Of a stretch of DNA of 64,000 nt, positions 44,755 to 61,562 are shown piece after piece. Numbering within the stretch: the stretch's first letter is position 1; every line of letters begins with the position of its first letter. The notes below the pieces were generated by a model. That model was not told where the DNA came from. It was given only the letters and a program-made list of their open reading frames with translations, and made no database searches. Both the position numbers and the translations under genes were made by a program. This DNA is from Vicinamibacteria bacterium (GTDB taxonomy: Bacteria; Acidobacteriota; Vicinamibacteria; Vicinamibacterales; UBA8438), in contig JAJEFC010000346.1 of the NCBI GenBank assembly GCA_022820675.1, forward strand, positions 3,387-67,386, written 5' to 3'.

Positions 44755-45003
44755 CTACGGCATCTCGTCTCCTGGAACGGGGCGCTGGCCGACGCCGGCC
44801 CGCGCGAGGATGCGGCGTGCCGCCGGGAGGTCGCCTCTGGCCGCCCGCTCGGCGAAGTACTGTTCGGTTCGAAGCGCGGACAGCTTCTCGGCGACCGCGA
44901 CGTTGATCAACTGGTTCACCGCCACGCCCTCCGCCTTGGCGAGCTTCCGCACCTCCTCCAGCAATGCGGGCTGAAGCCTCAGCGCGAAGTTGCTCTTCTT
45001 CAT
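44755..45003 (-). CDS. HicB-like / Arc-MetJ ribbon-helix-helix antitoxin-like protein, orphan
   Basis: ATG at 45003. [41 protein letters not shown] is the HicB-family RHH pattern. No HicA-like partner is adjacent. Confidence 0.55.
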
Positions 45004-45033: not shown

Positions 45034-45828
45034 ATGAGCGTGAGGATCATTCAGGTCGACGCCTTCACCCGCGAGCCGTTCGGCGGGAACCCGGCCGCCG
45101 TGTGCGTGTTGCCGCGGCCGGCGGAGCCGGCGTGGATGCAACGGGTTGCGCGCGAGATGAACCTGTCGGAGACGGCGTTCCTGGTGGGCCGCGAGTCGGG
45201 CGGGTACGACCTGCGGTGGTTCACCCCGACCGTCGAGGTGGACCTGTGCGGCCATGCGACGCTGGCCTCCGCCCATGTCCTCTGGGAGGACCGACACCTC
45301 GCGCCGGCCGCCCCCGCCGTCTTCCACACGCGCTCGGGCCGGCTGTCGGCGGAGCGCCGCGGCGACTGGATCGAGATGGACTTCCCCGCGGAGCCGGACG
45401 AGCCCGCGCCGCCGCCCGACGGGCTCGCGCGCGTCCTCGGGGCCGAGCCGGCCTACGTCGGCCGGAACCGGTTCGACTATCTCGTCGAGGTCGACTCGGA
45501 GGCGACGGTGCGGGGGATCGCCCCGGACCTCAACGCCCTGGGGCGGCTGCCTGTCCGCGGCGTCATCGTCACCGCGCGCGGCGAGACCGAGGGGTTCGAC
45601 TTCGTGTCGCGCTTCTTCGCCCCTCGCGCCGGGGTCGACGAGGACCCGGTCACGGGGTCCGCACACTGTTGCCTCGGCCCCTACTGGCGCCGCAGGCTCG
45701 GCCGCGACGCGTTCACCGCGTGGCAGGCGTCGGCGCGCGGCGGGGTGGTCAAGCTCGCGGTGGCCGGCGACCGGGTCCGGTTGTCGGGGCAGGCGGTCAC
45801 CGTCCTGCGGGGTGAGCTGCTGGCGTGA
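45034..45828 (+). CDS. PhzF family isomerase
   Basis: IIQVDAFTREPFGGNPAAV, MNLSETAFL, RWFTPTVEVDLCGHATLA and DPVTGSAHC are canonical PhzF blocks. Confidence 0.9.
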   Translation: MSVRIIQVDAFTREPFGGNPAAVCVLPRPAEPAWMQRVAREMNLSETAFLVGRESGGYDLRWFTPTVEVDLCGHATLASAHVLWEDRHLAPAAPAVFHTRSGRLSAERRGDWIEMDFPAEPDEPAPPPDGLARVLGAEPAYVGRNRFDYLVEVDSEATVRGIAPDLNALGRLPVRGVIVTARGETEGFDFVSRFFAPRAGVDEDPVTGSAHCCLGPYWRRRLGRDAFTAWQASARGGVVKLAVAGDRVRLSGQAVTVLRGELLA

Positions 45829-45879
45829 CGCGTGGTCGCTCCGGCGCGTTCCCCGAGCCGGAAGGGGCGCCGGGCACCG

Positions 45880-45970
45880 TCAGGGGCATGAATGTAACGC
45901 CTTCAGGGGCAGGAATGTAGCGCTTTTTGGGGGCAGGAATGTAACGCTGTCAGCGGCAGGAATGTAACCG
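45880..45970. repeat. four direct repeats of GGCA(G/T)GAATGTA(A/G)C with 23-24 bp period
   Basis: The GGCA cores start at 45885, 45908, 45932 and 45955. The extended matches are tcaggggcatgaatgtaacgc, tcaggggcaggaatgtagcgc, ggggcaggaatgtaacgc and tcagcggcaggaatgtaaccg. The array lies between two convergent stop codons (45828 and 46024). Confidence 0.9.
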
Positions 45971-46023
45971 GCCGGGGGCAGTCCGCGACGGGAGTTCCCG
46001 CGGCGGAAGGACATCGCTCTACA

Positions 46024-49000
46024 TCAGCGTTTGAGTGCCAGATCGGCGCTGACGTCGCGGAGGAGCTTGTCGATCGACTCCAGCGTGTTCGATTGGATGT
46101 CCTTGACGCTGGCGCCCAGGGTCACGTCGAGCCGGAACTCCAGCGGCAGTCCGGCAGCGGCCTTCACGATCTCCGGCAGCGCGTCGACCAGATCCTGCAG
46201 CGCCGCGGGATCGAGCACCGCGGACGACCCGTACCCGGCCGTGGTCTTCGAGACGGCCGGCGAGACGGAGGTCGGATCGAACCCGGTGGGCGGTCTCAGC
46301 GAGACCGTCCCCGCGGCGGCCACTTCGCACGGCCAGGGGCCGCTTTCGGGCGTGGTCTCCAGCCAGCGGGACGCGATGGCGTCTTCGACCGCCCGGCGCA
46401 GCACCGCCCAGGGCAGGGGATTGCCCTCCTGGTTGGCGAGGGCGATAGAGAGCGCCAGCACCGTCGTTTCGTCCGCCTTCCAGGCGTCCGGCACGGCGTT
46501 CTTCAGCAGGCGCTGCACGGGCACGGGCTCCAGCGGCGCTCGCAGCGCCGCCGCGGGGGTCAGCACGCCGGCCGGCAGCGGCTCGCCCTGGAAGCTGGCC
46601 GGTCCGTTCAGCAGCCACAGGCTGCCCTGCTGTACCGCTGCCGCGACCGCCGCTTCGACGGCGTTCGCGGGGCAGGCTGGAATGTCCATCGGTTCCTCGT
46701 AGCCCTCCCGGAGCACCGTGACCGTCCGGCCGCCCGAGAAGTAGTCGACGACGGCGGCGACGGTGATCGAGTCGCCGGCCCAGAGCTCCGGCAGGACGCC
46801 GGGCGCCAGGACGCCGGGGTCGAGGTCGGAGAGGGTCGCCGCCGCAGGCAGGAAGAGCTCGAGGGCCGGCTCCGACCGCGCCGCCTCGTCGATCGGCGTC
46901 CGCCACCAGGTCTTGACCGACCGGTCGGGCCGCGGGAGCGACGCGACGAACAGGCCGTCCCGCACGCCCCGGTCGATGGTGGCCAGGATCTCCTGCGTGC
47001 GGAGCATCTTGGGCAGCCGCGGGTTCTCCGCGAACGCACTCGCGAGGTCCTTGACGCGGCGGGACGGCTCGTCGTCGCGCCACAAGTCGTACGGTCCCCC
47101 CGGCAGCATCGCCTCGGCGTTGATCGGCGCCTCCTGGACGCGTGCCCGCCGGTCGGCCTTGACGGTCTCGAACAACGGATCGGAGCCGACCGTCACCCGG
47201 AACGCCTGGACCTCGTTCTGCGGGTTCACGGTCACGACGATGGTCCACGCCTGCCGAATCGCCTCGGGAATCCGGCGGCGCGCGTCCTCGGTCCACGTCG
47301 CCAGCATCTCCTCGCGCACCGGGTCCTGCGGCTGGCCCCTGAGCTGGTGCTGCACGTCGTCCCACCCGAGGTAGTCGCGGACGCGGGTGCGCGCCACCTC
47401 GAGCCCGTCGGTCGAGGGCGCCACCAGCACCACGGCGTTGCGCCGGATGCGGGGGCGGTCGGGGCCGGTCGTCTCGTCGAGGAAGCGGCGCGCGGCTCGG
47501 CTCGGCCGTCCCGCGTTCGAGACGCACGCCGGCGGCAGGACGGCGAAGTGGAACTCGCCGTCGTCCTCGACGTCCCGGGGCCGCTCCGGCAGCATGTGCA
47601 CCCGCACGCCGGACGCCCGCGCGCCGTGGGTCAGGCTCTTCGTCGCGCGGATCTCGGCCAGCAGCTTCACCTCGACCGCTTCCGCGGTGACGCGGTTCGT
47701 GCAGGCGTCGTGGTGCATCTGATTCAGGTTCGGCCGGTTCCCGAGCCGCCACGCCTTCGGCAGCGGCGGCGGGCCGCCGTCCGTCGCCGGTTCGCTCCCG
47801 AATTCGTTCTCGTCGAGGAACCACGACAGATCCGTCCAGCGGCGCAGCCCCTGCTCCAGCTCGATGCGGTCGGGGCGCGTGGCGCCCACCAGCCCGATGA
47901 GGTCTCTCGTCTGGGCCTTCTGACCGGTCGGCTGCGAGGCGAGGAACACCGTGCAGACGGCCTGTTCGATCTCGCGGCCCCTCAGTCCGCTCTGTTCGTC
48001 CTGAATGGCCCGCGCCTTGGCGAGTTCGCCTTCCAGGATCGCCGCCCAGTCGTTGCCGCGGCTTTCGGTCGCTTCTCGCGTCGCGACGCCGGTCAGCTCG
48101 CGGGCCGCCTCGGCGATGCCGTCGCGGCCGGGCGCCGGCAGGAAGATGTTCGGGCCGACCAGGGGCGACGTGTCCCAGCTCTCGGCGTCGCGCAGCGCGA
48201 TGGCGAACGTCCGCAGGATGCCGCGCGTTCGCTGGAACCGGTCGAGCTGCGTCCAGCGCACGTAGAAGAGGTCGGTCAGGTCGGGGTGGAAGGGATAGCC
48301 GCGGGCGAAGCGATCCTCGGCGCTCTTGCGGTCCTTGCGGACGACGTCGTCCACCGCGGCGAGGTTGCGCACGGCGGTCGTCACGTGCGGCAGGAACGCG
48401 TCCGAATCGGCGATCGACGCGGGGGTGAAGAAACGCCGGCGCAGCACCTCGGCCACATCCTCTTTCTGGACCGGCTGCACGCCCTCCTCCTTCTGCCGGT
48501 TGAAGATCTCCGCGATCTGCGCGCTGATGGCCTTGCCCGTCTCGTCGCTCTTGTCGATGTCCGAGGCGAGCAGCGACGCCACGAGCGCACAGCGGTCGAC
48601 CTTGGTCACCGCCTGGCACAGATACTGGAAGAAGTCGGTCAGCCGCCCGCGCCACGCCTCGTCCACCGCGACCTTGCCGCGCGCGAACATCAGCACCTCG
48701 TCGATGAGCACGAGCGTCGCCAGCCCCTCGGCCTGGGGCCGCGACAGCAGATCGACCAGCAGCGGCTCGGCCGGGGCGGTCTCGCGCTCCTCGTCCCGGC
48801 CCTCGGCGTGCAGCGCCCGGATGCCGGCTGCGCCGGCGATCTGGAAGGCGAGCACGCTCCACGGGTGTTTCAGCCAGCGCAGCTCGCCCGCCGGCCCGCG
48901 CACCTCCATCCCCTTCTCGACGTCCAGCTTGTCGAACGCGAGCGCCGCGACCCGCGCCGGCGGCAACGACGCGCCTACGTCCGACCGGAACTGCTCGACC

Positions 49001-49344
49001 GCGGGCAGGTTCGGCAGCGACGCGGGGTCGTGCGCGAGATGCCGCAGCGCCACCAGCGTGTGCGTCTTGCCGCCGCCGTAGGTCAGCTCGAGCTGCCGCA
49101 CCGCCTTGGTGTTGCGGCCCGCAAGGCGAAGCATGACGTCCCGCGCCAGCTCGCGCAGCGAGAAGGTTGGGTAGGTCAGCGCGAAGAAGCGCGCGGGGTC
49201 TTCGTAGATCGGCCGCGCTCCCCGCTGCATGATGACGTCGTGGAGGTCGGCGGCGAAGTCGGCCAGCGACAGCTCGCCGGTGCGCACGTCCTCGCGCAGC
49301 TTCACAACACGGTGCCAAGGGGTCCAGGGGAGCTTCTGGGACAT
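46024..49344 (-). CDS. DUF499 domain ATPase (COG1483-like), ATPase component of helicase-methylase-ATPase (Hma-like) system
   Basis: ATG at 49344 (MSQKLPWTPWHRVVKLREDVRTGELSLADFAADLHDV). Walker A-like GGGKTH and Walker B-like LVLIDEV are present. The N-terminal text is as I remember for DUF499 proteins. Confidence 0.85.
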   Translation of the reverse strand: MSQKLPWTPWHRVVKLREDVRTGELSLADFAADLHDVIMQRGARPIYEDPARFFALTYPTFSLRELARDVMLRLAGRNTKAVRQLELTYGGGKTHTLVALRHLAHDPASLPNLPAVEQFRSDVGASLPPARVAALAFDKLDVEKGMEVRGPAGELRWLKHPWSVLAFQIAGAAGIRALHAEGRDEERETAPAEPLLVDLLSRPQAEGLATLVLIDEVLMFARGKVAVDEAWRGRLTDFFQYLCQAVTKVDRCALVASLLASDIDKSDETGKAISAQIAEIFNRQKEEGVQPVQKEDVAEVLRRRFFTPASIADSDAFLPHVTTAVRNLAAVDDVVRKDRKSAEDRFARGYPFHPDLTDLFYVRWTQLDRFQRTRGILRTFAIALRDAESWDTSPLVGPNIFLPAPGRDGIAEAARELTGVATREATESRGNDWAAILEGELAKARAIQDEQSGLRGREIEQAVCTVFLASQPTGQKAQTRDLIGLVGATRPDRIELEQGLRRWTDLSWFLDENEFGSEPATDGGPPPLPKAWRLGNRPNLNQMHHDACTNRVTAEAVEVKLLAEIRATKSLTHGARASGVRVHMLPERPRDVEDDGEFHFAVLPPACVSNAGRPSRAARRFLDETTGPDRPRIRRNAVVLVAPSTDGLEVARTRVRDYLGWDDVQHQLRGQPQDPVREEMLATWTEDARRRIPEAIRQAWTIVVTVNPQNEVQAFRVTVGSDPLFETVKADRRARVQEAPINAEAMLPGGPYDLWRDDEPSRRVKDLASAFAENPRLPKMLRTQEILATIDRGVRDGLFVASLPRPDRSVKTWWRTPIDEAARSEPALELFLPAAATLSDLDPGVLAPGVLPELWAGDSITVAAVVDYFSGGRTVTVLREGYEEPMDIPACPANAVEAAVAAAVQQGSLWLLNGPASFQGEPLPAGVLTPAAALRAPLEPVPVQRLLKNAVPDAWKADETTVLALSIALANQEGNPLPWAVLRRAVEDAIASRWLETTPESGPWPCEVAAAGTVSLRPPTGFDPTSVSPAVSKTTAGYGSSAVLDPAALQDLVDALPEIVKAAAGLPLEFRLDVTLGASVKDIQSNTLESIDKLLRDVSADLALKR

Positions 49345-49357
49345 CTGCTGGTCTCGT

Positions 49358-49930
49358 TCAGTTCCGGCCAACTACGGCCTGTAGCCGTCGGGCGAGGTTG
49401 TCGAAGTCCTCGGGACACTTCCGCCGGATCGCGTCGATTCGGCCGGCCGCTTCCTCGCCCAGCGGCTTCCGGCCGCCGCCGGGTGCGCGGTGAACCCCGC
49501 GGTCTTGGGCGACTCTGTCGAAATAGCGTTCCTTCACGTGGACCTCCGCGCGAACGTCCCGCCAACGCCAGTCGTCGGGCAGCTCGAGGCCCGCGAGTAC
49601 CCACGTCTCCAGTTCCTCCCAAGCGTTCTCCGCCAACAAGACGCAGCCGTCGCCGAACTCCTTCTCCAAGGCTTGGAGTCTGTCCCGCCGGTGCTCTTCG
49701 CCGTCACGGTCGACGCAAAGGATGAACATACTCGTCATACCGCCGTGCCGCGTGACAACCTCCGACGTGCGGGATGACTTCAGGGCTTCGCCGACACCCC
49801 CGAGTACCGGGTCTTCGCATACCCGAACGCGGGCCGTCGGCCTGCCGATGGCCCGAAAGAGGGACTTGAACAGCGGTTTCAGGATGTACTTGTCCTTTCG
49901 GGAATCCTCCGGAATGACCAGAACATTCAC
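49358..49930 (-). CDS. small TOPRIM-like / DUF4276-like protein, partner of the upstream ABC-type ATPase
   Basis: The GTG start overlaps the ATPase stop (GTGA at 49927-49930). It has an N-terminal acidic strand (VLVIPEDSRKD) and a later ILCVDRDGEE (DxD-like), the layout of a TOPRIM/OLD-type nuclease domain. The family assignment is not certain. Confidence 0.5.
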   Translation of the reverse strand: MNVLVIPEDSRKDKYILKPLFKSLFRAIGRPTARVRVCEDPVLGGVGEALKSSRTSEVVTRHGGMTSMFILCVDRDGEEHRRDRLQALEKEFGDGCVLLAENAWEELETWVLAGLELPDDWRWRDVRAEVHVKERYFDRVAQDRGVHRAPGGGRKPLGEEAAGRIDAIRRKCPEDFDNLARRLQAVVGRN

Positions 49931-51216
49931 GACTGCTGATCTCCCCGGTCGTCTTCGGTGAAGGCGAGCGCCGTTTCCATCCAGCCCGACTCGTGCAGCC
50001 TCCCCAGTCCCTGGTCCTGCCGCAGCTCTCGAGCCTTGGGAAGATCAACGACCCGGCGGATCACCCCGTTGGCGGTGTCTTCGAGTCGGCAGGTCACGGA
50101 GGTGTGCTCGAACGTGTCGTCCTTCATCACGGTCAGGAGCGTCGGCGAATGCGTCGTTCCGACCACCTGCGTGCGGCCTCTCGTCGGTCCCTCGAACAGA
50201 TCCAGCAACAATCCGAGCCGGACAGGGTGAATGCCGTTGTCGATCTCCTCGAAGAAATACAGTCCGGCCGTGTTCTCAGCGAGCAACGCAGCCAGCATCG
50301 CCAGGAAACGCAACGTACCGTCCGAGACGCTGTACGCGGACAGCTTCCGCTGGTCGGACTCGCGAATCACGAGCTGGACCAGTCCGGTCACCGGGTCGAC
50401 GGGAAACTCGAAGTCGGTGACGTCCATGGGCGTGAGTTCGCGAACCCAGCCGATCAGGCTGTCGGCTCTTTCCTGGTTGGCGCAGATCTGCCGAAGCACG
50501 GTCGGCAGGTTCTCGCCAGTATCGCCCAGCACGGTCTGTCCGGGGAACGCCGGCCGTCGCATGCGGTCGGGTATCAGGTCGAGAAAACGCATGTTCGCGA
50601 AGACTTCGATCACCCTTCTTGCGTAGTCCTTGTGGGCACGCACCACGCGTTTGTGTTCCTCGATCTGCGTCAGAGCCGGCTGGTCCGGCCGCACAGCGAT
50701 CCGATCGCCGTACTTGCGCTGCGTGCCAGTTTTCCGCATTCGGAGCAGCAGGTGCGTGTCGTCATCCTGGTATCCGACAGGATCCGAGTAGGGAGGGTCG
50801 CTCGTGTAGATCGGCTCCGCGCCTGTCCAGGTCGAGAGCTCCTCACGCGTGACTCGGAAATTACCGGAGTCCGCCGCGCTTCGGGATATGTCGATGCGGT
50901 AATGCGCGGGTGTATTGCCGAGCTTCAGTCGAACCTCAAGGGCGAATCGATGTCCAGATTCGGTGTCGGCCAGGCGCCCGATCTCATTGGGGGCGCCGCG
51001 AACCGCCTGCCACTCGGTCTGACCGCCTGGTCCGTACTTGCCGCCGAGAATCTCCGCCAACGTGTAGCCGCGTCCGATGCCGTGCAAGAAGCGGAACGCG
51101 TCCCGGATATTGCTCTTGCCGCTGGCGTTCGTGCCCACGATCACGGTGAACGGCCCGACGCGGAGTGTTTCGTCGGCGAAGTTCTTGAAGTCGACGAGTC
51201 GAAGCGAGGTGATCAT
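49927..51216 (-). CDS. ABC/SMC-like AAA ATPase (AAA_15/AAA_21-type)
   Basis: In-frame ATG at 51216. MITSLRLVDFKNFADETLRVGPFTVIVGTNASGKSNIRDAF (Walker A), SDGTLRFLAMLAALL (signature-like) and LYFFEEIDNGIHP (Walker B) are present. Confidence 0.8.
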   Translation of the reverse strand: MITSLRLVDFKNFADETLRVGPFTVIVGTNASGKSNIRDAFRFLHGIGRGYTLAEILGGKYGPGGQTEWQAVRGAPNEIGRLADTESGHRFALEVRLKLGNTPAHYRIDISRSAADSGNFRVTREELSTWTGAEPIYTSDPPYSDPVGYQDDDTHLLLRMRKTGTQRKYGDRIAVRPDQPALTQIEEHKRVVRAHKDYARRVIEVFANMRFLDLIPDRMRRPAFPGQTVLGDTGENLPTVLRQICANQERADSLIGWVRELTPMDVTDFEFPVDPVTGLVQLVIRESDQRKLSAYSVSDGTLRFLAMLAALLAENTAGLYFFEEIDNGIHPVRLGLLLDLFEGPTRGRTQVVGTTHSPTLLTVMKDDTFEHTSVTCRLEDTANGVIRRVVDLPKARELRQDQGLGRLHESGWMETALAFTEDDRGDQQS

Positions 51217-51359
51217 GGCTTCGTTTCCCACCCTGACGGTCGTTCGGCGGGAATCGCCCCTCCAGGAACGTGTCCGAGGATGGCCGGGCGGTTCGCCGCG
51301 GGTGGGCCGCACAAGGCACCAACGAGCGCCGTGGAATCGGACAGCCGGTGGGTCATCGG

Positions 51360-51596
51360 TCAGTCGGCGCGGCGGTCGGGGTGACGTTGGCGCCGCACCC
51401 ACGCCGCGGGGTCGTCGTCCCACGCGTGGCCAGTATCAGGCAGGCGGCCGAGGGCGTCGTCGATGTCGTCCCAGCGCCGTTCGTGCTCGAGACCGCGGCG
51501 GATCAGCTCGGCGATGAACGCGCTTCGCCGCCGCGGCCCGGCGCGGCGGTCGATCTCGTGCACGAGTGCGTCGTCCAGTGCGATGTGCAGACGCAT
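51360..51596 (-). CDS. ribbon-helix-helix (CopG/VapB-like) protein
   Basis: ATG at 51596. MRLHIALDDALVHEIDRRAGPRRRSAFIAELIRRGL plus a Trp-containing tail (AWVRRQR) is the pattern of actinobacterial-type VapB/CopG antitoxins. No PIN partner is present. Confidence 0.6.
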   Translation of the reverse strand: MRLHIALDDALVHEIDRRAGPRRRSAFIAELIRRGLEHERRWDDIDDALGRLPDTGHAWDDDPAAWVRRQRHPDRRAD

Positions 51597-51643
51597 GGGC
51601 CTGAAACTAGCATGGCCGGCGCGCGGGAGTCCATGCGTTCGAG

Positions 51644-54600
51644 TCACGGTTCCTCTTCGAGCCGTTGCAGCTTCGGCTGGCGCGGGGGCGCCAGACCGAC
51701 GCGGGCGGCGACGTGGTTCGAGAGCGACTCCAGGACGGCGCGTTCGTCGGAACCGGCGTCGGCCAGCTCGATTAGCGCCTGCAAGAGACGGGCGAAGAGG
51801 GCGTGGCGCTTCAGGCCGCGGTCGTCGAGATAGTCGTTGACCCGCGCTTCTTCGCCGGCGCGCCACAGGTGCATCAGGCGGTGGGCCTGGTCGATCAGCG
51901 GCGGCGGGCGGCCGTCGGGTGCGGCGTGGCCGAGCGACCTGGCCGTCCTGCGGCTCCACGGCTTCAGCGCCACGCGGCTGCCGGCGCCGCCGGGGCCGTC
52001 GGTCGAGCCGGCGCTGTCGGTCGAGCCGGTGCTGTCGGTCGAGGCGGAGCCGTCCGGCGGGCCGGCGTCCTCGTCGAAGTCGGCGTCGTCGTGGCCGGCT
52101 TCGCCAGCGGACGGGCGCCTGCCGCGAGACAGGACGTCGTAGCGATCCGTCAGCTCGCGGTCGGACAGGTTGCAGGAGAGGGCGTAGAGAATGCAGGCGC
52201 CGGCGGGGGCGTCGCCCATGCCGAAGTCGTTGCGGTGCAGCAGGTAGTAGGTGGTTACGTCGTCGAGCCCGCTGGTCGCCTGGGTGTCGCCGTCGTGGGT
52301 CAGCACCCGGCCGACCACGAAGTCGACCACGAAGCGCCGCACCTCGCGGAGGAACTCCGACACCGCGAGTCGCTCGCCGGGGGCGTCCGCCTTCTTCACG
52401 ACGGGGTGCTTCGAGAACGCCTCGAGGGCGGGCCCGGTCGCCGCCCACACGAAGTCGGGGCCGCGGATGCCGGCGACCCAGAAGTCGCGGAGCTGCCGGG
52501 TGATGTTCTCGCGCATCTCGGCGAGCACCGCGGCGTCCCATCCCGCCCGCGCGGCCGGGCGCTTCCGGCAGACGATCCAGATCGACGAGGCGAGGGCCGC
52601 CGACTGCATGGCGCGGGTCCTGGCGAGCCGTTCCGTCTGGATCGTCCACGAGCCCACGACCACGAACCCGGCCCGGATGAGAGCGGAGACGAGCGTCTCC
52701 CACGCGTCCGGCGACTTGTTGGCGAAGACGATGACGAGCCGGCCCTCGTCGCGCAGCGCGGCGTGGAACCGCGAGAACGCGCGCGCCATGCCGTCCTCGT
52801 AGTTGCGCTTCGACGCCCCGCGGTCGCCGCCGAATCGGGCGGCGTCGTCGATGAGCTCGCCGTCGTTGGCCGCCGCGTTCCACTTCGGGCCGAGGGGCGC
52901 CTCGAAGGCGGCGTCGATCTCGGGCGACAGCCCCCAGAGCGCGCGCCGCAGCCAGACATGGAAGAAGTCCATCAGGTCGGAGTAGGGAATGGCGTCGTAG
53001 TAGGGCGGGTCGGTACAGATGAGGTCGAAGCCCGGGTCCGCGGCGCCGTGGGCCTGCGGCTCGGTCGCGGACCCCGGCGTGCCGGTGGAGCCAGCGGGGG
53101 ACAATCGCTGTTCAGTGCTGGTGGCCTGCGGCTCGGTCGCCGCTGCCGCACCCGCGGCCGCACGGATCGCCGCCAGCACACCCGCAGAGTCGTCGCGGAA
53201 TGTCCGCCGGCCGGGTTCGGCGGAGGCTTGGGGCTCGGCGGTGGGTCCAGGCGTCTTGTCGGAGGTGATTGCCGGCGGAGGTGCCCCGGGGGTGGCCGTG
53301 GGCTGCGGTTCGGCCGCGGACCGGCGCAGCACGGCGGGTGCAGGCGCAGCGGTCGTGGCGTCGAGCAGGTGTTCGCATACTTCAGCGGTCCATTCGACGG
53401 CCTGGATGAAGCCGCCGCTGGTATCGGCCAAGGGGCAGGACTCCGCGAAGTCCCACACCATCGGCAGTGCGAAGCGAGCGAACGTATGCCCAATCTTGTC
53501 GGCGTCGTATTGCCACGTGGCCAGCGTGCTCCCGCGGTCGGCCACGCGGCTGATCGTGGGCGTCAGCGTCGCGACCAGCGCTTCCCGCCACGCTTCCGGC
53601 CAGCCGGCCATCGTCTCGGGGAGGCGGCGCATCTCCTGGACAAGCGTGCCGAGGGCCAGGAGTTGGCGGTTCGTGAACAGCGTGCGCCACCTGTCGAAGC
53701 CGTAGCCGTCGACCGAGAACGCCCGCGACGCTCCGACTCCGGCCTTCGGCGTCGGCTCGTCCGGCACGCCGAACGGCGACTCCGCGTAGAGCGCCTCGAT
53801 CTCTGCCTCGTCCACCCGCGCTGCTTCCAGCTCCAGGGCCGTTGGCAGCCGATACTCCTTGCCGTGCGGGCCGTCGACCACGACCGCAGTCATGACCTCG
53901 CCCAGCCGCCCGGCGCGGCCGTCGAGGCGGAGGTCCTGCATGGTCATGATGGCCTGGCAGAGGGGGCACCGCACGCCGGACCGGCTCATCGTGCCGGCGC
54001 CGACCCGCCGATCGTGCTCGCGCCGGCGCGCGGGGTTGCCTTCCCCCCGGGGGACGTCACTCTCGACTCCGAAGACAACCCCCGTCTTGTCCGCGTTCGC
54101 CGCCATCGTCAGCCGCACGCGCTTGGCACCCTTCCTGGCGAGCCAGCGGGTCTTGAGTAGCGGGACCGTCGCGCGGCAGCCCTTGCAGCGCGCCGTGCGC
54201 GCCCAGAGATACGCGACGGCCGGCTTCGCCACCCATCGCGGATTCCGCCGGTCCTTCAGGTACACCGCGTCGAACGCCGCGTTCAGCGGACCGACGTCGG
54301 TGTCGCCGTTCGCGTCGGCGGCCAGCAGCGTCAGCGGCCGCGGCTCGAACGGCCGGCCGCCCGGCTTCAACGCCTGGAACGCCGCGTAGGTCGGATACCG
54401 TCGCGCAAGCCGTCGCCGCGCCTCGGCCAGCACCCGGCGTCCCCAAGCGCGGACCTGCCACGCGAGGTCCGCCTCCAGCTCCGGTCCTGTGCCGATCAGA
54501 CGCGGCTCGGTCTCGCGGTCGTCGCCGAGGCAGAGCTCGGCGAGTTCCCGCCTCAACGCCCGGCCCTTCACGCCCCGCGCCTTCAGGAGGGCGGTCATGA

Positions 54601-55198
54601 ACACCCGGTCCCGCAACGCGAACGCCGGCAACGGCCGCGCCTCGCCCGCGAGCCTCCGCGGATAGTCGAGCGTGCACTTCAGGATGAACCACGCGACCGG
54701 ATTGATGTCGACCGCCGTCACCGCGCAGCCCAGCCGCATCGCCTCCAGCGGAATCGCGCCCCCGCCCGCGAACGGATCGAGCACCCGCGGCGCGCGCCCG
54801 CCGAAGGCGTCGCGAACCCGCGCCCGGAACCACTCGACGTCCGGCCCGCCCTCCCGTTTCCAGTGGAGAATCCCGCCCTGCGTCTCCCGCTTCCGCCGCG
54901 CCACCGTCCGTCCGCCGACCCGCTCGTCCTCGACCGTCTCGACGACCTCGCCCGCCATCCGCCGGTAGACCGCCTGTCGCTCCCGCGCGCTCCCGGGGTC
55001 GGGCAGCAGCGTCGCGATCAGCGCCGCCCGGCTCGCCGCCAACGGCCGCCGCGCCGGCCAGATGTGCAGCGTCGAGATGTGCCCGTGGCGGACGTTCTTC
55101 TCGTGGACGGAGTCGAGGGACACCTGCTCCAGAGGAAAGGCGACCTCGATCAGGCGCTTGTGCGTCAACGCGTCTCTCCCGCCACGTGTTTCCGCCAC
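51644..55198 (-). CDS. DUF1156 domain DNA methyltransferase (COG1743-like, DPPY motif), methylase component of Hma-like system
   Basis: KRLIEVAFPLEQVSLDSVHEKNVRHGHISTLHIWPARRP (DUF1156), VLDPFAGGGAIPLEA (SAM motif I), Cys pairs CKGC/CPLC (Zn ribbon) and CTDPPYYD (motif IV) are present. An alternative TTG start at 55168 would overlap the upstream stop as TTGA. Confidence 0.9.
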   Translation of the reverse strand: MAETRGGRDALTHKRLIEVAFPLEQVSLDSVHEKNVRHGHISTLHIWPARRPLAASRAALIATLLPDPGSARERQAVYRRMAGEVVETVEDERVGGRTVARRKRETQGGILHWKREGGPDVEWFRARVRDAFGGRAPRVLDPFAGGGAIPLEAMRLGCAVTAVDINPVAWFILKCTLDYPRRLAGEARPLPAFALRDRVFMTALLKARGVKGRALRRELAELCLGDDRETEPRLIGTGPELEADLAWQVRAWGRRVLAEARRRLARRYPTYAAFQALKPGGRPFEPRPLTLLAADANGDTDVGPLNAAFDAVYLKDRRNPRWVAKPAVAYLWARTARCKGCRATVPLLKTRWLARKGAKRVRLTMAANADKTGVVFGVESDVPRGEGNPARRREHDRRVGAGTMSRSGVRCPLCQAIMTMQDLRLDGRAGRLGEVMTAVVVDGPHGKEYRLPTALELEAARVDEAEIEALYAESPFGVPDEPTPKAGVGASRAFSVDGYGFDRWRTLFTNRQLLALGTLVQEMRRLPETMAGWPEAWREALVATLTPTISRVADRGSTLATWQYDADKIGHTFARFALPMVWDFAESCPLADTSGGFIQAVEWTAEVCEHLLDATTAAPAPAVLRRSAAEPQPTATPGAPPPAITSDKTPGPTAEPQASAEPGRRTFRDDSAGVLAAIRAAAGAAAATEPQATSTEQRLSPAGSTGTPGSATEPQAHGAADPGFDLICTDPPYYDAIPYSDLMDFFHVWLRRALWGLSPEIDAAFEAPLGPKWNAAANDGELIDDAARFGGDRGASKRNYEDGMARAFSRFHAALRDEGRLVIVFANKSPDAWETLVSALIRAGFVVVGSWTIQTERLARTRAMQSAALASSIWIVCRKRPAARAGWDAAVLAEMRENITRQLRDFWVAGIRGPDFVWAATGPALEAFSKHPVVKKADAPGERLAVSEFLREVRRFVVDFVVGRVLTHDGDTQATSGLDDVTTYYLLHRNDFGMGDAPAGACILYALSCNLSDRELTDRYDVLSRGRRPSAGEAGHDDADFDEDAGPPDGSASTDSTGSTDSAGSTDGPGGAGSRVALKPWSRRTARSLGHAAPDGRPPPLIDQAHRLMHLWRAGEEARVNDYLDDRGLKRHALFARLLQALIELADAGSDERAVLESLSNHVAARVGLAPPRQPKLQRLEEEP
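51998..52051. repeat. 18-nt in-frame tandem repeat (3 units) inside the methyltransferase gene
   Basis: gtcggtcgagccggcgct / gtcggtcgagccggtgct / gtcggtcgaggcggagcc, encoding STDSTGSTDSAGSTD on the minus strand. Confidence 0.9.
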
Positions 55199-56223
55199 AG
55201 GTAGCTGGCGAAGGAGGCGCAGGCGCCCAGCATGAACACCGCCTCGTCCCGGCCTACTTGAGCATCTGTCCGGTCGAGCAACGGATGACGAATACCCTGT
55301 TCGTCCGACGCGTAGCCGTAGAGCCTGATGAACGCTTCCCTGAGCGCGGGATGCAGCGCGCGATGTCGCTCAAGTGACTTCAATGCCGGCCCCAAATTGC
55401 TGGATGCCTCTGGATCGAGTTTCCGGGCAACAGACTCGACAGCGTGAATGCTCTCCCGAACGGCTCCGGCCCAGTCACCGACGTGGATGTTCCCGGACGC
55501 GTCGCGCAGGTGTGCCGCGCTGGCGTCCAGGCCAGCCTCCCGAAGCTCGCCGAGGGACTCGACAACCGCGGTTCCCTCTTCGGGCGTCACGGCCGGAATG
55601 ATGGTCGGCGGTGGTGCCACATCGATTGTGTAGGCCAATCGGCATTCGGCGAACGTCTTCTTCATCTGCTTGACGAATCCGCGCGGACACCTGGGATGGC
55701 GCAAGACGAACTGGATGAGGTCGAATACCCTGTTGAAGGGCCATTTCTCAATGCGCTGGCGAAGACTGTACCGAACTCTCGGGAATCGGGGATCCCATTT
55801 GTCCAGCGAACCACGGTCCAGGTGAACGTGCTTGGCATGCAGAATCTCATCCCAGGGTGCGGCAATCCACGACTCGGCAAACATGTACGGATCCCCCACC
55901 GTCTTGGTGGACCGACTGATGTGTTCGAAGAACAGGTTCCATATCTGCGTCCGCGCATCTCGCGACAGCTCTCCCAGTTGCAGCGGCCCGGGAACATCTT
56001 CGTAACCCTGGGCCTGCGAGAAACTGAGTTCATGTGCGTCGCGACGAGTCGGCGTTCCACGGAGACCACTGGGTCCGCCGGGTGGTTCCAGTCCATCGGC
56101 TGTGGGGGCCGCGATCCGTGCTCGCTGACGCGCGCGCCAAGCGGCCCGGCGCATGGCCGCCTCGGCGCCCACCATGTCTGGATCACGGTCCGCGTGCGTC
56201 GGATTCCTGTGTTCGGTGCTCAT
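55165..56223 (-). CDS. AbiJ-like protein: AbiJ-NTD4-like N-domain plus C-terminal HEPN domain
   Basis: FSQAQGYEDVPGPLQLGELSRDARTQIWNLFFEHI resembles the AbiJ N-terminal domain 4 pattern. The C-terminus AVRESIHAVESVARKL ... FIRLYGYASDEQGIRH ... MLGACASFASYLW resembles the AbiJ-type HEPN with its R-x-H region. The ATG at 56223 overlaps the upstream stop (ATGA). Confidence 0.65.
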   Translation of the reverse strand: MSTEHRNPTHADRDPDMVGAEAAMRRAAWRARQRARIAAPTADGLEPPGGPSGLRGTPTRRDAHELSFSQAQGYEDVPGPLQLGELSRDARTQIWNLFFEHISRSTKTVGDPYMFAESWIAAPWDEILHAKHVHLDRGSLDKWDPRFPRVRYSLRQRIEKWPFNRVFDLIQFVLRHPRCPRGFVKQMKKTFAECRLAYTIDVAPPPTIIPAVTPEEGTAVVESLGELREAGLDASAAHLRDASGNIHVGDWAGAVRESIHAVESVARKLDPEASSNLGPALKSLERHRALHPALREAFIRLYGYASDEQGIRHPLLDRTDAQVGRDEAVFMLGACASFASYLWRKHVAGETR

Positions 56224-56750
56224 GTTCGCCTGCCTTCCCCGACCAGCATCGGAACCTCTCCTGAATTGTCGTACACCGCCCACACGTCCACGAGGGCGCG
56301 GTAGACCTGCTCGAAGTTGCGCCAGCCGGACAGGAACCGCCGTCGGATCACCGGTTCGGGCACGTCGTGGCCGCCTTCCGCCACCCGTTGGGCCACCCGA
56401 GCGATTGCCGCCTCGGGCGACGGCAGCCGCAGGAAGAACAGCTTGACCCGGTAGCCGTGCTCGCGCCAGCGAGGAATCAGGCGGGTGTAGCCGCGTCCGC
56501 TCAACGTCGTCTCGAAGGCGAAGCTGGCGCCCCCCCGTGCGTGCTCCTGAATCTGCCGGGCCATCAGCCGGCCAGCCTGCACGGCCACCGAACCCGCCCC
56601 GAACGGGCTCAACCCGGCCGCAATGAGGTCACCGTTGACGAAGACGGGGCAGCCGGCTTCGGTCGGCAGGAACTCCCGGGCGAACGTCGTCTTCCCGGCT
56701 CCGTTCGGTCCGGCGACTATGAGAACCCGCTTGCCGGCATTCGCAGTCAT
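56220..56750 (-). CDS. zeta-toxin-like P-loop kinase/ATPase (COG4185-like)
   Basis: In-frame ATG at 56750. Walker A is VAGPNGAGKTTFAREF. FETTLSG, VKLFFLRL and GGHDVPEPVIRRRF ... NF ... VYDNSG follow the COG4185/zeta family pattern. Confidence 0.7.
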   Translation of the reverse strand: MTANAGKRVLIVAGPNGAGKTTFAREFLPTEAGCPVFVNGDLIAAGLSPFGAGSVAVQAGRLMARQIQEHARGGASFAFETTLSGRGYTRLIPRWREHGYRVKLFFLRLPSPEAAIARVAQRVAEGGHDVPEPVIRRRFLSGWRNFEQVYRALVDVWAVYDNSGEVPMLVGEGRRT

Positions 56751-56781
56751 GTCGTTCCGGTACACAAGGCGCTGCCGCGTT

Positions 56782-57639
56782 TCAGAATGGAACTTCGTCA
56801 GCAACAGTGTCAATTGATATTTCGTAGTCAAACATGCCGTTGTCCGTAACAAGCCTGATCATCGATCTGCCGGTTACTTGATAGCTATCTTGAAGCGCGT
56901 CGCCGCGTGACTTGAAGGCCACGATACGTCGAGCCTCGAATCGCAATTGAGCCCAACCCGTACGTTGAAGACGCTTGACCGGACAGGTCAGGAAATAGCG
57001 CCATTTGTATTGGGGCACGTCCGACTCTGTGCTGGGGCTATCCCTTTCGTCTTGACGGATTCTCCATTTGTGTCCAGTATAAAAGTAAACGCTCTCGATT
57101 TCTGCAGATGGCAGGTCGGAGTCGTTGTGGAGATCGATCCTAAAAGTTATTTTTGCGGTGGCAGACCAATCCGTCCTTTCCAAATCACCACGGATCTCCT
57201 GTACTTGCACACGAATCCGGCTGCGGCGAATGTTCTCTATTTCGTTGCGAGCCCATGCAAGATTCTCTATCATTTGCTCGCGGAGGAATTGGATTGAACC
57301 CTCGTAAACAATATGCCGCCTGTCCTTCAAGTCGAATGGGATGTCAGCGACATCTCTGGTGAGCAATAAGCAAAGCTTGTCCTTGGCATGCGCGTACCCC
57401 ACTTCGTAGAAGACATTGGGGTTCCTGCCAGACATGTCGGCGATGACGATGTCCGCGGCTTCGATTTGCCGGTAGATTCGGTCAAGTATACCTCCCGCGA
57501 ATAGTTGCTCGTCGACGCGTTCTGCGCGGATACCGAGATCGTCGGCAGGGTCCTTGATGCCCAGTCGGTAGATGTCGTCGAAATCCGAACTGAAAGGCAT
57601 GAGCACGAACGCGAAGGTCGTTTCTGTTGGGTTATGCAT
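56782..57639 (-). CDS. nucleoside 2-deoxyribosyltransferase-like / TIR-like N-domain protein with uncharacterised beta-rich C-domain
   Basis: FAFVLMPFSSDFDDIYRLGI ... ILDRIYRQIEAADIVIADMSGRNPNVFYEVGYAHAKDKLCLLL ... IPFDL is the pattern of the deoxyribosyltransferase/TIR-like Rossmannoid effectors. I do not recognise the C-terminal ~150 aa. The gene is markedly lower in GC than its neighbours. Confidence 0.6.
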   Translation of the reverse strand: MHNPTETTFAFVLMPFSSDFDDIYRLGIKDPADDLGIRAERVDEQLFAGGILDRIYRQIEAADIVIADMSGRNPNVFYEVGYAHAKDKLCLLLTRDVADIPFDLKDRRHIVYEGSIQFLREQMIENLAWARNEIENIRRSRIRVQVQEIRGDLERTDWSATAKITFRIDLHNDSDLPSAEIESVYFYTGHKWRIRQDERDSPSTESDVPQYKWRYFLTCPVKRLQRTGWAQLRFEARRIVAFKSRGDALQDSYQVTGRSMIRLVTDNGMFDYEISIDTVADEVPF

Positions 57640-57783
57640 CTGTTCCGTCCGGTGGTACAGCCACTACATGCCCGGCGATCACGAAGATTCTCTTGCCGAC
57701 TGCGTTGGTCAGAAACGGTTCCGATCGGCGGCCTCGTGGCTGTTCCAGGTCGGCGGACTGGTAGCCCTTGACGTGCACGCGCT

Positions 57784-59703
57784 TCAGCACGCGACGTCTC
57801 CAGAGTTCACGCCCATCTCCTGCAGAAACCGTGACGGCTGTTTGGCCCAGCCGAAGTACGAGTCGGCATGGGTCAGGGTCAGGCTGGACTGAACGCGAGT
57901 GATTGCCACGAAGCAGTTGCGACGTTCTTCTTCGAGGGCGGCAGGCCCGCCCTGCAGTGCGTGAAACGAAGGCAACTGCTCTTCCGCGAGCCCGATCAGG
58001 TAGACGTGACGGAACTCCTTGCCCTTGGCGAGATGAATCGTCAGACACTGCACGTCGCCGGCGGTCGGAGGCGAGGTCTTCTGGCGGAGGTCGAGTTGCT
58101 GGAGGAACTGGCTCAGCGGCGGGTCAGCGCCCAAGTGCTGTCGGATCTCCGCCGTCAGAGATCTCCAGATCCCACTCTCGTCGGATTCCTCGTCGGAATC
58201 GGTAGCGACCGCTCGCGGTGTGCGATCACGCCAATCGAAGGTGTTCTTGATGAAGTCGCGGTACCTTCCTCGGTCAAGGAGGTCGTTCCGCAGGGTATGC
58301 AGCAAGGGCCGTGCGGCGGGGGTTGCACATGAGGATGCAACGTTCAAGAACCCAGCCAGAAGAGGGTCTCCCAGCAGAACGCTCTCGGCCTCCGCTTGCG
58401 TGGGCTGCACGGGGGCCGCGGTGAGCTCGTAGAAGGCCCCGCACAAGAGAGCGAGTTGCTCGGTGTCGCCGGGGCGACGGATGAGGCGTAGCGACGAGTG
58501 GAGAAAACGCAGGAGCGGCGATTCGAACTCGGCCTTTCGCTTGACCACGTACGACGGCAGTCCGGCTCGCGACAGCGCCGCGGCAACGGCGCGGACGAGC
58601 TTGGTGCTTCTGGCGAGGACCGTGCAATCTCCGGGCTCGATGGAGCTCGTCTTGATGTCTTCGGCGACCCAGGACAATTCGGTTGCGCAGTCGGTGAATC
58701 GGCGAGCTCGGACCACCGACGAGCGTGAGGGGGGGGGCGTGGTGGTGGCGGACACCAGGGGCCTCTTGTCGGCGGCCCGGTCAGCGTTGTGGGCGATGAG
58801 GTTGTTCGCCAAGCGAACGACCTCGGGCGGGCATCGAAAGCTCTCGGGAAGCTGGACGATGGCCATGTCGTAGTCGGTCCGGAGTCGGCGGAGACGCTCG
58901 GGGCTGGCGCCGTTCCACTGGTAGATGGTCTGGTCATCGTCGGCGACCACGAAGAGGTTGCTGTTCCGGTCAGGGTAGAGCGCCCGCAGGAGAAGATCCT
59001 GGACCTTGTTGGTGTCCTGGTACTCGTCCACGCAGGCGAACGGGTACACGATGCGGTAATCGCGGGCGATGCGGGGGCGTTCGCGGAAGAGGCGGAGACA
59101 GCACACGAGGAGCGCGCCGAAGTCGAGATGATTGCCTTCGATCAGACGCTGGATGTACGCCCCGAAGATGGGACGAATCCACTCCTTGCCGGGGGCGGCG
59201 AACGGCAGCGGCGCGTCGTGACCCTCGCGACCGTCGTGGCCGTCCCGAAGCAGGCGGTCGACCATGGGCATCAGACCCTTGCCGGTCGCGCCCGCCGGCG
59301 TGCCGGGGTGACCGGCATCCTGTATCGCGTCGTTCAGGACCAGATGCCGATCCGCGTCCTGGTTGAGGATCGCGAAGTCGGGGCGCAGGCCGAGGTGGCT
59401 GCCGTGCTGGCGCAGCACGTCGGCGGCGAAGCCGTGGAACGTCGTCAGGCGAGCTCGGCGCATGCGGGGGCCGAGCAGTTGGGCGACCCGGCCCCTCATC
59501 TCCTCGGCCGCCTTGGTCGTGAACGTGAGCGCGAGGACTCGGAACCGCTTGTCGGGGGTTTCCTGGATGAGCCGCGCGACGCGCGTCGCGAGCACGCGCG
59601 TCTTGCCTGCCCCCGGCCCGGCGAGCACCAGCATCGGGCCGTCGTTCCAGTCGACGGTCCGCCGCTGGTTGACGTTCAAGGAGTCCAGATCGAGCATGGT
59701 CAC
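57784..59703 (-). CDS. gajB: UvrD/PcrA-type superfamily 1 helicase, Gabija GajB
   Basis: VLAGPGAGKTRVL (Walker A), LTFTTKAAEEM, VDEYQDTN and IHLAKGKEF are present. It lies directly downstream of the OLD-type ATPase-TOPRIM gene with overlapping stop and start (GTGA at 59700-59703). Confidence 0.85.
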   Translation of the reverse strand: MTMLDLDSLNVNQRRTVDWNDGPMLVLAGPGAGKTRVLATRVARLIQETPDKRFRVLALTFTTKAAEEMRGRVAQLLGPRMRRARLTTFHGFAADVLRQHGSHLGLRPDFAILNQDADRHLVLNDAIQDAGHPGTPAGATGKGLMPMVDRLLRDGHDGREGHDAPLPFAAPGKEWIRPIFGAYIQRLIEGNHLDFGALLVCCLRLFRERPRIARDYRIVYPFACVDEYQDTNKVQDLLLRALYPDRNSNLFVVADDDQTIYQWNGASPERLRRLRTDYDMAIVQLPESFRCPPEVVRLANNLIAHNADRAADKRPLVSATTTPPPSRSSVVRARRFTDCATELSWVAEDIKTSSIEPGDCTVLARSTKLVRAVAAALSRAGLPSYVVKRKAEFESPLLRFLHSSLRLIRRPGDTEQLALLCGAFYELTAAPVQPTQAEAESVLLGDPLLAGFLNVASSCATPAARPLLHTLRNDLLDRGRYRDFIKNTFDWRDRTPRAVATDSDEESDESGIWRSLTAEIRQHLGADPPLSQFLQQLDLRQKTSPPTAGDVQCLTIHLAKGKEFRHVYLIGLAEEQLPSFHALQGGPAALEEERRNCFVAITRVQSSLTLTHADSYFGWAKQPSRFLQEMGVNSGDVAC

Positions 59704-61394: not shown

Positions 61395-61498
61395 CCGGTC
61401 ACTCCGTCGGGCCGCGTCCTTCGCTGCGGCGGCTCGTGTCCTTCGCGATGAGGCGTCGCGCGTTCGGTCTCCATGGTCAAGACGTGGGTTGCGCCCAT
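61391..61498 (-). CDS. possible 35-codon upstream ORF translationally coupled to gajA
   Basis: ATG at 61498, 6 nt after AGGAGG (61505-61510 on the + strand). Its TGA overlaps the gajA ATG (ATGA at 61391-61394). The product MGATHVLTMETERATPHREGHEPPQRRTRPDGVTG has no recognisable family. Confidence 0.25.
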   Translation of the reverse strand: MGATHVLTMETERATPHREGHEPPQRRTRPDGVTG

Positions 61499-61562
61499 GT
61501 TCGACCTCCTCTCGGGTGGGCTCGGGCTCGGCGGCGAACCGGTTCGGCTGCCGCCGGAATCA

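Follow-up and report, generated by a model that had tools for sequence, protein, structure and literature searches.

Gene content of the locus

The window analyzed here is a 64,000-nt stretch (~72% G+C) of contig JAJEFC010000346.1 (assembly GCA_022820675.1) from a Vicinamibacteria bacterium, and the element in question is a pair of overlapping minus-strand genes, encoding an ABC-type ATPase and a small TOPRIM-like protein, carried as cargo within an operon of the Hma type. The first gene of the pair (49927-51216) was identified from its open reading frame (ORF), translation, and Pfam and PADLOC matches as an AAA_21/OLD-ABC-like ATPase of 429 aa, beginning MITSLRL. The second (49358-49930, from a GTG start) encodes a 190-aa protein containing the motifs VIPEDS and ILCVDRDGEE; family profiles and an AlphaFold2 (AF2) model characterize it as a DUF4276-like, TOPRIM-type putative metal-dependent nuclease, and thus as the candidate effector. 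The two genes share the 4 nt GTGA (49927-49930, minus strand), which combine the TGA stop of the ATPase with the GTG start of the small gene. An earlier note, made from the sequence alone, had described the ATPase with its motifs, this overlap, and the position of the pair between a methylase and a DUF499 ATPase. All of these elements are present where the note placed them, on the minus strand, and PADLOC and NCBIfam identify the two flanking genes as HmaB and HmaC.

HmaB, a DUF1156 N6-adenine methyltransferase, flanks the cargo upstream (51644-55198, minus strand; PADLOC HmaB, E = 1e-105; Pfam DUF1156, 6e-18; NCBIfam DUF1156_antiphage). It is followed by a 47-nt spacer (51597-51643, minus strand; …CATGCTAGTTTCAGGCC), placed by alignments with relatives. 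Downstream lies HmaC, a DUF499-type ATPase on the minus strand that extends from 46024 to either 49344 (ATG) or 49371 (TTG) (PADLOC HmaC, 5e-71; NCBIfam DUF499_antiphage, 6e-24); the TTG start would overlap the small gene by 14 nt, and the ATG start lies 13 nt past its stop. HmaC orthologues in four related loci (L084-L087) carry PF04465. A helicase of the SNF2/NOV_C type, HmaA (61563-63986, minus strand; PADLOC HmaA, 2.5e-80), is cut by the window end. HmaA, HmaB, and HmaC are therefore all co-directional in one locus, as in Hma, a DUF499-centred, BREX-related system. The G+C content is 0.63-0.67 across the ATPase/small-protein cargo, as compared with 0.72 in the Hma genes, and a scan of the coding strand for promoters and terminators returned nothing. 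The nearest relative of the window is a Vicinamibacterales (Acidobacteriota) metagenome-assembled genome (MAG; L001).

The ATPase

By its sequence, the ATPase retains every motif needed for nucleotide binding and hydrolysis. These are a Walker A motif, GTNASGKSN (G28-N36, with K34); a signature-like motif, SDGTLRFLAMLAALL (S298DGTLRF); a Walker B region, FFEEIDNGIHP, with E323/E324 in the position of the catalytic Glu; and an H-loop, THSP (H356). All are invariant or conservatively replaced across 75 sequences. The Pfam match to AAA_21 (3.4e-30) is full length, aligning residues 23-361 with profile positions 1-303 of 304, and together with the four motifs it places the protein among AAA_21/OLD-ABC-type ATPases; SMC_N is matched at 5e-12.

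Matches to defence-specific profiles are more graded. The best PADLOC family is PDC-M07A (5e-62; 208 bits, full length), followed by HEC-01A (1.7e-40) and mad3 (2e-21); the PADLOC match labelled AriA is to a generic AAA_21 profile, and NCBIfam MAD3 is matched at 85.9 bits against a cutoff of 420. The ATPase aligns end to end with the experimentally tested HEC-01A at 24% identity (E = 6e-17).

The small protein and its probable relationship to DUF4276

Homologues of the small protein number 2276 at E ≤ 1e-3, and an exhaustive search of cluster representatives resolved the family into 540 clusters at 50% identity. The best 120 of the 2276 homologues are 65-96% identical to the window protein, 185-200 aa in length, and without a Pfam domain; those that carry a name from their source are called hypothetical protein. 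In an alignment of 36 members (35-53% identity), the invariant or near-invariant residues are E8, D13, P19, D74, D76, E106, E108, W110, R127, K133, R154, and C172; in a set of 75 sequences they are E8, D9, D13, D74, D76, E105, E106, E108, R127, K133, R154, and C172.

The AF2 model of the small protein (pLDDT 86.6, pTM 0.84) predicts the element order b1 (2-7), a1, b2 (34-37), a2, b3 (68-73), a3, b4 (97-102), a4, and a helical C-terminal half. In this model E8 falls just past b1, D74xD76 just past b3, and E105/E106/E108 just past b4, so that both the element order and the motif positions are those expected of a TOPRIM domain (b-a-b-a-b-a-b, with Glu after b1 and DxD after b3). DUF4276 and RloB are described as Toprim-superfamily domains that carry Glu and DxD at these same positions (PMC12065111).

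Profile searches with the relatives of the window protein point in the same direction. PF14103 (DUF4276) is matched at E < 1 by 17 of the 36 diverse relatives, one of which (P0234; 2e-7) aligns with profile positions 7-191 of 192 and, at 31.9 bits, exceeds the gathering score of 30.2 bits that the window protein does not attain. Because a bona fide HEC-01B protein (L084) itself scores only 30.8 bits, the PF14103 model appears to be narrow. PADLOC HEC-01B is matched weakly by 10 of the 36 relatives (best 1.6e-6) and mad4 by three; RloB is matched by four, all below threshold (best 17.3 bits, E = 0.0057, against a gathering score of 31.5), and Toprim_4 by one. Profile-profile alignment with hhalign against two merged DUF4276 clades gave probabilities of 69% and 60% (E = 4e-5 and 9e-5), in register at the DxD and at ELE-x-W, and the control with a reversed profile gave 1%. 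These data suggest that the small-protein family grades into DUF4276/HEC-01B.

Several results weigh against this assignment, however. Direct searches of Pfam, NCBIfam, and PADLOC with the window protein itself found no match, even at E ≤ 10, so that it reaches no DUF4276 or HEC-01B model. The hhalign probabilities of 60-69%, calculated without secondary-structure scoring, are moderate, and they depend on the diversity of the DUF4276 profile: with a single HEC-01B clade the value was 24%, and with only the other clade it was 1.6%. A Foldseek search of the PDB with the model recovered generic flavodoxin/Rossmann-like folds only (best E = 3e-3, TM < 0.4), and its top 50 matches did not include any TOPRIM structure, such as those of OLD (6NK8), Gabija, PARIS, RNase M5, or primases. 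In contrast, a control model from the HEC-01B clade (canonical DUF4276; pLDDT 93), which has the same element order as the small protein, matches the OLD C-terminal region in 6NK8 at E = 1.5e-4 and TM 0.58. To judge from the two models, the window protein is clearly more remote from OLD than is canonical DUF4276. In the viral library BFVD, Foldseek found no significant match, the best full-length TM-score being that of an RloB-like protein (TM 0.48, probability 0.92, E = 0.09), and a PDB sequence-profile search with the family alignment gave chance matches only.

Taken together, these results make it probable that the small protein belongs to the TOPRIM superfamily as a DUF4276-type protein that has diverged strongly. 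The TOPRIM-type fold that the earlier note had suggested is thus supported by the element order and motif positions of the AF2 model but not by Foldseek comparison with solved structures. Similarly, its remark that the protein does not obviously match DUF4276, RloB, or DUF4435 is borne out by direct searches but not by the PF14103 matches of the relatives or by hhalign.

Conservation and distribution of the gene pair

We examined 80 related genome loci (L001-L080), containing 74 intact pairs. Their sources are Acidobacteriota, Binatota, Latescibacterota, Nitrospirota, Chloroflexota (Dehalococcoidia), Spirochaetota, Gemmatimonadota, Alpha- and Gammaproteobacteria, and Entotheonella, and many are sponge or coral MAGs. 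In each of the 80 loci, the small gene is immediately preceded by ATPase sequence (43-93% identity), and 67 of the 74 intact pairs have a 4-nt stop/start overlap (ATGA, GTGA, or TTGA). A Mantel test shows correlated distance matrices for the two proteins (r = 0.46, a value reached in none of 2000 permutations). The ATPase and the small protein therefore co-vary, their genes are paired far beyond chance, and the pair is kept as a unit across at least 10 phyla-level lineages.

The surroundings of the pair are far less constant. HmaB upstream and HmaC downstream were found in 26 of the 80 loci; one more (L079) has a fragment of HmaC only, and the remaining 53 lack this arrangement. In loci without Hma, singletons make up 140 of the 200 nearest ORFs and neighbour clusters do not exceed three members, so that a search of neighbouring ORFs found no third conserved partner outside Hma; a PADLOC census of these neighbours returned scattered defence genes only. 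The pair also occurs by itself on two plasmids, Brasilonema pBOCT1 and one from Rathayibacter, where it is annotated as ATPase/ATP-binding protein and hypothetical protein. Because most loci lack Hma and have no recurrent neighbour, the pair appears to be an autonomous, mobile two-gene module. The HmaB-HmaC junction is its sole recurrent landing site among the 80 loci, though not an obligatory one.

Identities of 60-80% across phyla point to recent horizontal spread within the sponge/coral habitat. The record titles of the 80 loci show the small-protein family to be concentrated in the kinds of MAG that are typically found in sponge and coral holobionts (Vicinamibacterales, Binatia, Latescibacterota, Nitrospira, Dehalococcoidia, Palauibacter, and Entotheonella), and the public runs in which the exact window sequence was found (X1, X2, X10, and X19) are sponge metagenomes.

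The upstream RHH gene

Between the HmaB-cargo spacer and the ATPase, the window contains a gene for a 78-aa ribbon-helix-helix (RHH) protein (51360-51596, minus strand; Pfam RHH_1, weak, E = 0.038), followed by a 47-codon ORF (51213-51356, minus strand) whose end is joined to the ATPase start by an ATGA overlap. Homologues of the RHH protein number 1173 and are typically 79 aa in length. In one of them (P0431, 79% identical), a 130-aa PIN protein begins 3 nt downstream, and in the window an ATG follows the RHH gene at the same 3-nt spacing. VapC alignments identify the first ~25 codons of the 47-codon ORF as a vapC (PIN) stump, the rest being unrelated sequence up to the ATPase start. The copy of this ORF in L001 is 58% identical to the N-terminus of intact VapC over 33 aa (E = 2e-9), and DNA homology to intact vapBC ends ~75 nt into vapC. 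The stump in the window is more decayed (14 of 28 residues identical by eye, without a BLASTP match); Pfam gave no match to the 47-aa stumps, which are too short. In an intact VapBC system, the RHH gene would be followed at once by that of an intact PIN toxin; in the window and in L001, only ~25 codons of vapC survive. The RHH family is multi-copy in related genomes, P0431 alone being present on 27 contigs.

Among the 80 loci, the RHH gene is found only in L001 and L079, and the L079 copy is frameshifted, with its parts in two frames. The ATPase of L004 is 90% identical to that of the window; there, the spacer that precedes the RHH gene in the window (…GCTAGTTTCAGGCC) joins the ATPase start directly, without an RHH gene, so that the gene reads as an indel relative to this close relative. 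The sequence comparisons thus identify it as an intact orphan vapB-type antitoxin gene beside a truncated vapC, specific to its lineage and outside the ATPase/small-protein module. The earlier note had described an RHH gene with no toxin partner, overlooking the stump of ~25 N-terminal vapC/PIN codons 3 nt downstream, and had considered the RHH protein a regulator or third component of the module. Because the gene is absent from 78 of the 80 loci, is an indel relative to L004, and is the vapB of a truncated vapBC, it is neither a regulator nor a component of the module.

Comparison with named defence systems

The closest named system to the window pair is HEC-01, described by Payne et al. (bioRxiv 10.1101/2024.01.29.577857) as a cassette embedded among hma genes, in which the gene for an ABC ATPase and that for a DUF4276 protein overlap by 4 nt (tested genes at 2004590-2005168 and 2005165-2006352). 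The window pair shares the gene order of an ATPase (~400 aa in HEC-01) followed by a ~190-aa DUF4276-type TOPRIM protein, the 4-nt overlap, and the position between hma genes; the ATPases can be aligned end to end, and relatives of the small protein match HEC-01B models. It differs in that the two HEC-01 models are not both recovered: HEC-01A is matched at 1.7e-40, but the window protein has no HEC-01B match and its ATPase scores higher on PDC-M07A. In addition, Foldseek places the canonical DUF4276 model, but not that of the window protein, near the OLD C-terminal region.

Several loci (L013, L016, L018, L049, and L084-L087) contain a window-type pair followed by a bona fide HEC-01 pair (HEC-01A 616 bits, HEC-01B 320 bits, PF14103), both between HmaB and HmaC. 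Because the two stand side by side in several genomes, window-type pairs and HEC-01 are separate, coexisting lineages, which suggests that they are not redundant. The tandem site lies at about 8600-10530 in L084; a DUF433 gene follows it in L084, L085, and L087, and the tandem is degraded in L048.

Other systems with related components were considered and rejected. PARIS, composed of the ABC ATPase AriA and the DUF4435 TOPRIM nuclease AriB (PMC11464382), has the same split ABC ATPase/TOPRIM-superfamily architecture and provides the only mechanistically solved model for sequester-and-release; however, its effector is ~300 aa as compared with 190 aa here, and neither the window protein nor any of the 36 relatives matches DUF4435/AriB. 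MADS similarly combines an ATPase (MAD3) and a DUF4276 protein (MAD4) in methylation-associated defence, and weak matches exist (mad3 for the ATPase, mad4 for three relatives), but the host system here is Hma: MAD3 falls far short of its cutoff, and the neighbours are Hma genes, with no other mad genes present. AbiL (AbiLi ATPase and AbiLii/RloB) and OLD/Gabija also pair an OLD-type ABC ATPase with a TOPRIM-like nuclease, and the best full-length viral-library structural match of the window protein is RloB-like. OLD and GajA, however, are single fused proteins, unlike the split window pair; identity with AbiL is not supported, the window protein having no RloB match and the best relative remaining below the RloB gathering score.

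PDC-M07, a PADLOC candidate system, was raised by the best PADLOC match of the ATPase and is likewise an embedded two-gene cassette. Genuine PDC-M07 ATPases nevertheless reach ~700 bits and are partnered by PDC-M07B, a PIN-like protein of 160 aa that is unrelated to the window small protein: neither the latter nor its relatives match PDC-M07B, and hhalign gave 0.9%. Genuine PDC-M07B proteins score 246-255 bits (E = 3.5e-74), examples being those of a Vibrio hsd operon (plasmid pIFL1_3) and an Anabaena plasmid. PDC-M07B (L088 6293-6778; L089 5355-5837) looks like a small PIN-domain nuclease, with the N-terminus IIDTSVFL and Pfam matches to PIN_12 (E = 0.006) and PIN (E = 0.02); on pIFL1_3, the PDC-M07 pair lies between hsdS and hsdR. 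The earlier note's placement of the pair as a divergent or unclassified member of the split ABC ATPase/TOPRIM-like class therefore stands: the small protein matches nothing in PADLOC, Pfam, or NCBIfam, and the pair is not PARIS, AbiL, MADS, or PDC-M07.

Other features of the Hma island

A second cargo site, between HmaA and HmaB of the same operon (window 55165-64000, minus strand), contains five genes, all on the minus strand. These include a complete Gabija system, GajA (59700-61394; 652 bits) and GajB (57784-59703; 737 bits), which lies 8 kb from the ATPase/small-protein pair, as well as genes for a TIR/nucleoside-deoxyribosyltransferase-like protein (56782-57639), a zeta-toxin-like kinase (56220-56852), and an AbiJ-like PDC-S32 protein (55165-56283). 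This site is also low in G+C (0.56-0.65). At the left island edge (44755-45000, minus strand, and 45034-45828, plus strand), a gene for a small RHH protein, with weak CopG_antitoxin and HicB-like matches and no obvious partner, adjoins a PhzF-family gene and a GMC-type oxidoreductase-like ORF.

HmaB contains low-complexity inserts, rich in Pro/Ala/Thr/Glu and with STDS repeats, that cannot be aligned with relatives (window ~53000-53450, corresponding to HmaB residues ~632-722, and 51700-51900). The tblastn match of HmaB breaks at residues ~631 and ~723, and contigs of related strains show many length variants there. In runs X3-X5, which derive from one host organism, word depth over window positions 45500-56500 is in the hundreds to thousands at HmaB and HmaC, 6-130 at the ATPase/small-protein cargo, and ~0 at the AbiJ-like region; one contig in these runs joins 49336 to 51460, bypassing the pair. 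Related Hma loci with other or no cargo probably coexist with that of the window, as weakly indicated by these assembler contigs of mixed strains.

Discussion

The ATPase/small-protein pair is likely an autonomous, horizontally mobile, translationally coupled sensor-effector module of the "ABC ATPase + TOPRIM-superfamily nuclease" class, nested in this genome between HmaB and HmaC of Hma, a DUF499-centred, BREX-related system. By analogy with related systems, we propose that the pair functions in phage defence. The ATPase would act as both sensor and scaffold, with an ATPase oligomer holding the small nuclease inactive, and translational coupling would set the stoichiometry of the two proteins. 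The ATPase would sense a phage cue, plausibly a phage protein that inhibits the surrounding restriction-like system; ATP binding or hydrolysis would then free or activate the nuclease. The small TOPRIM-like protein, as a metal-dependent nuclease, would cut nucleic acid (DNA or tRNA) and abort the infection, and the module would thereby back up Hma. Two considerations temper this proposal: the sensing, sequestration, and substrate steps are pure analogy with PARIS (PMC11464382) and OLD/Gabija, and HEC-01, as the closest named system, did not protect E. coli from the phages tried (bioRxiv 10.1101/2024.01.29.577857).

Alternatives to this model differ in where they draw the boundaries of the system and in the role they assign to it. 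The pair could be an integral accessory of Hma, such as a loader or a nuclease subunit needed for restriction, rather than an independent module. It does lie inside the Hma operon, co-directional with its neighbours and separated from them by just 13-47 nt, that strand has no terminator-like site, and 26 of the 80 loci place it at exactly the HmaB-HmaC position. However, Hma genes are lacking within 10 kb in two thirds of the loci and for both plasmid copies; in many Hma loci the same site holds different cargo or an additional ATPase pair; and the far greater depth of Hma genes than of cargo in the sponge-associated runs is a weak sign of Hma loci without the pair. We consider an obligate accessory role very unlikely. 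A still narrower possibility, that the RHH protein regulates or belongs to a three-gene system, draws on the position of its gene directly upstream on the same strand, intact in both the window and L001. That reading is barely tenable given the absence of the gene from 78 of the 80 loci, its frameshift in L079, the direct junction of spacer and ATPase in L004, and the close RHH homologues that are vapB genes followed by a PIN toxin, of which the window keeps a stump.

A selfish role is easier to entertain. The pair might be a toxin-antitoxin-like addiction or stabilization cassette, or another non-defensive mobile cassette, in which the ATPase neutralizes a toxic nuclease and has no part in phage defence; the patchy distribution across phyla at 60-80% identity, implying frequent transfer, the plasmid copies, the inactivity of HEC-01 in E. 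coli, and the Pfam description of AAA_21 as "putative AbiEii toxin, Type IV TA system" are all consistent with it. Yet the pair is found repeatedly within defence operons (Hma) and beside other defence cargo, every characterized relative of the architecture (PARIS, OLD, Gabija, HEC-04) is anti-phage, and addiction and abortive infection are mutually compatible, so that a purely selfish cassette seems unlikely. The chemistry of the module would be different if the small protein were not a TOPRIM nuclease but another alpha/beta protein of the flavodoxin-like type, for instance an adaptor, a nucleotide-binding protein, or an enzyme resembling a phosphatase. The top Foldseek matches are indeed to lumazine synthase, low-molecular-weight phosphatases, and similar folds, with no TOPRIM structure among them, the window protein has no direct match to a hidden Markov model, and the PDB sequence-profile search was empty. 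Those Foldseek matches are insignificant, however, with TM < 0.4. Profiles tie the family to DUF4276, RloB, and HEC-01B in a comparison that the reversed control fails, the invariant acidic residues fall exactly at TOPRIM positions, and HEC-01 has the same partner ATPase family, protein size, gene order, and overlap; a non-TOPRIM fold is accordingly judged unlikely.

Within the favored model of a mobile sensor-effector module, a more far-reaching idea is possible, if doubtful: that the 190-aa protein founds a distinct, unannotated effector family, unusually conserved across phyla and diverged from DUF4276 to another active-site geometry or substrate, and that with its own ATPase clade it constitutes a separate defence system, non-redundant with HEC-01 and spreading by horizontal transfer in sponge and coral microbiomes. 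If true, this would account for the tandem arrangement with HEC-01 at one Hma cargo site, for example with each pair sensing a different phage counter-defence protein.

The combination of an ABC ATPase with a TOPRIM effector in Hma/DUF499 systems has already been published, both as HEC-01 (bioRxiv 10.1101/2024.01.29.577857) and in a 2026 survey that describes OLD-type ABC ATPases partnered by TOPRIM, PIN, HNH, or REase proteins as "backup effectors" in BREX and DUF499-centred systems of more than 1200 taxa (PMC12839542). The window pair is a divergent example of this known type of nested defence module; with a mechanism that we infer, the finding refines the catalogue of such modules and does not change their understanding. 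It does reveal an annotation gap, in that a family of 2276 homologues in 540 clusters is labelled hypothetical protein in the public annotations examined. Because the window protein and its close relatives go undetected by Pfam, NCBIfam, and PADLOC, such cassettes are missed in censuses of defence systems. The gap is widest for uncultured sponge and marine lineages, and a profile built from the present alignments would close it. The tandem with HEC-01 in related loci, together with the nesting beside Gabija and AbiJ-like, TIR-like, and zeta-like genes in one Hma operon, provides a natural example of layered "backup" immunity.

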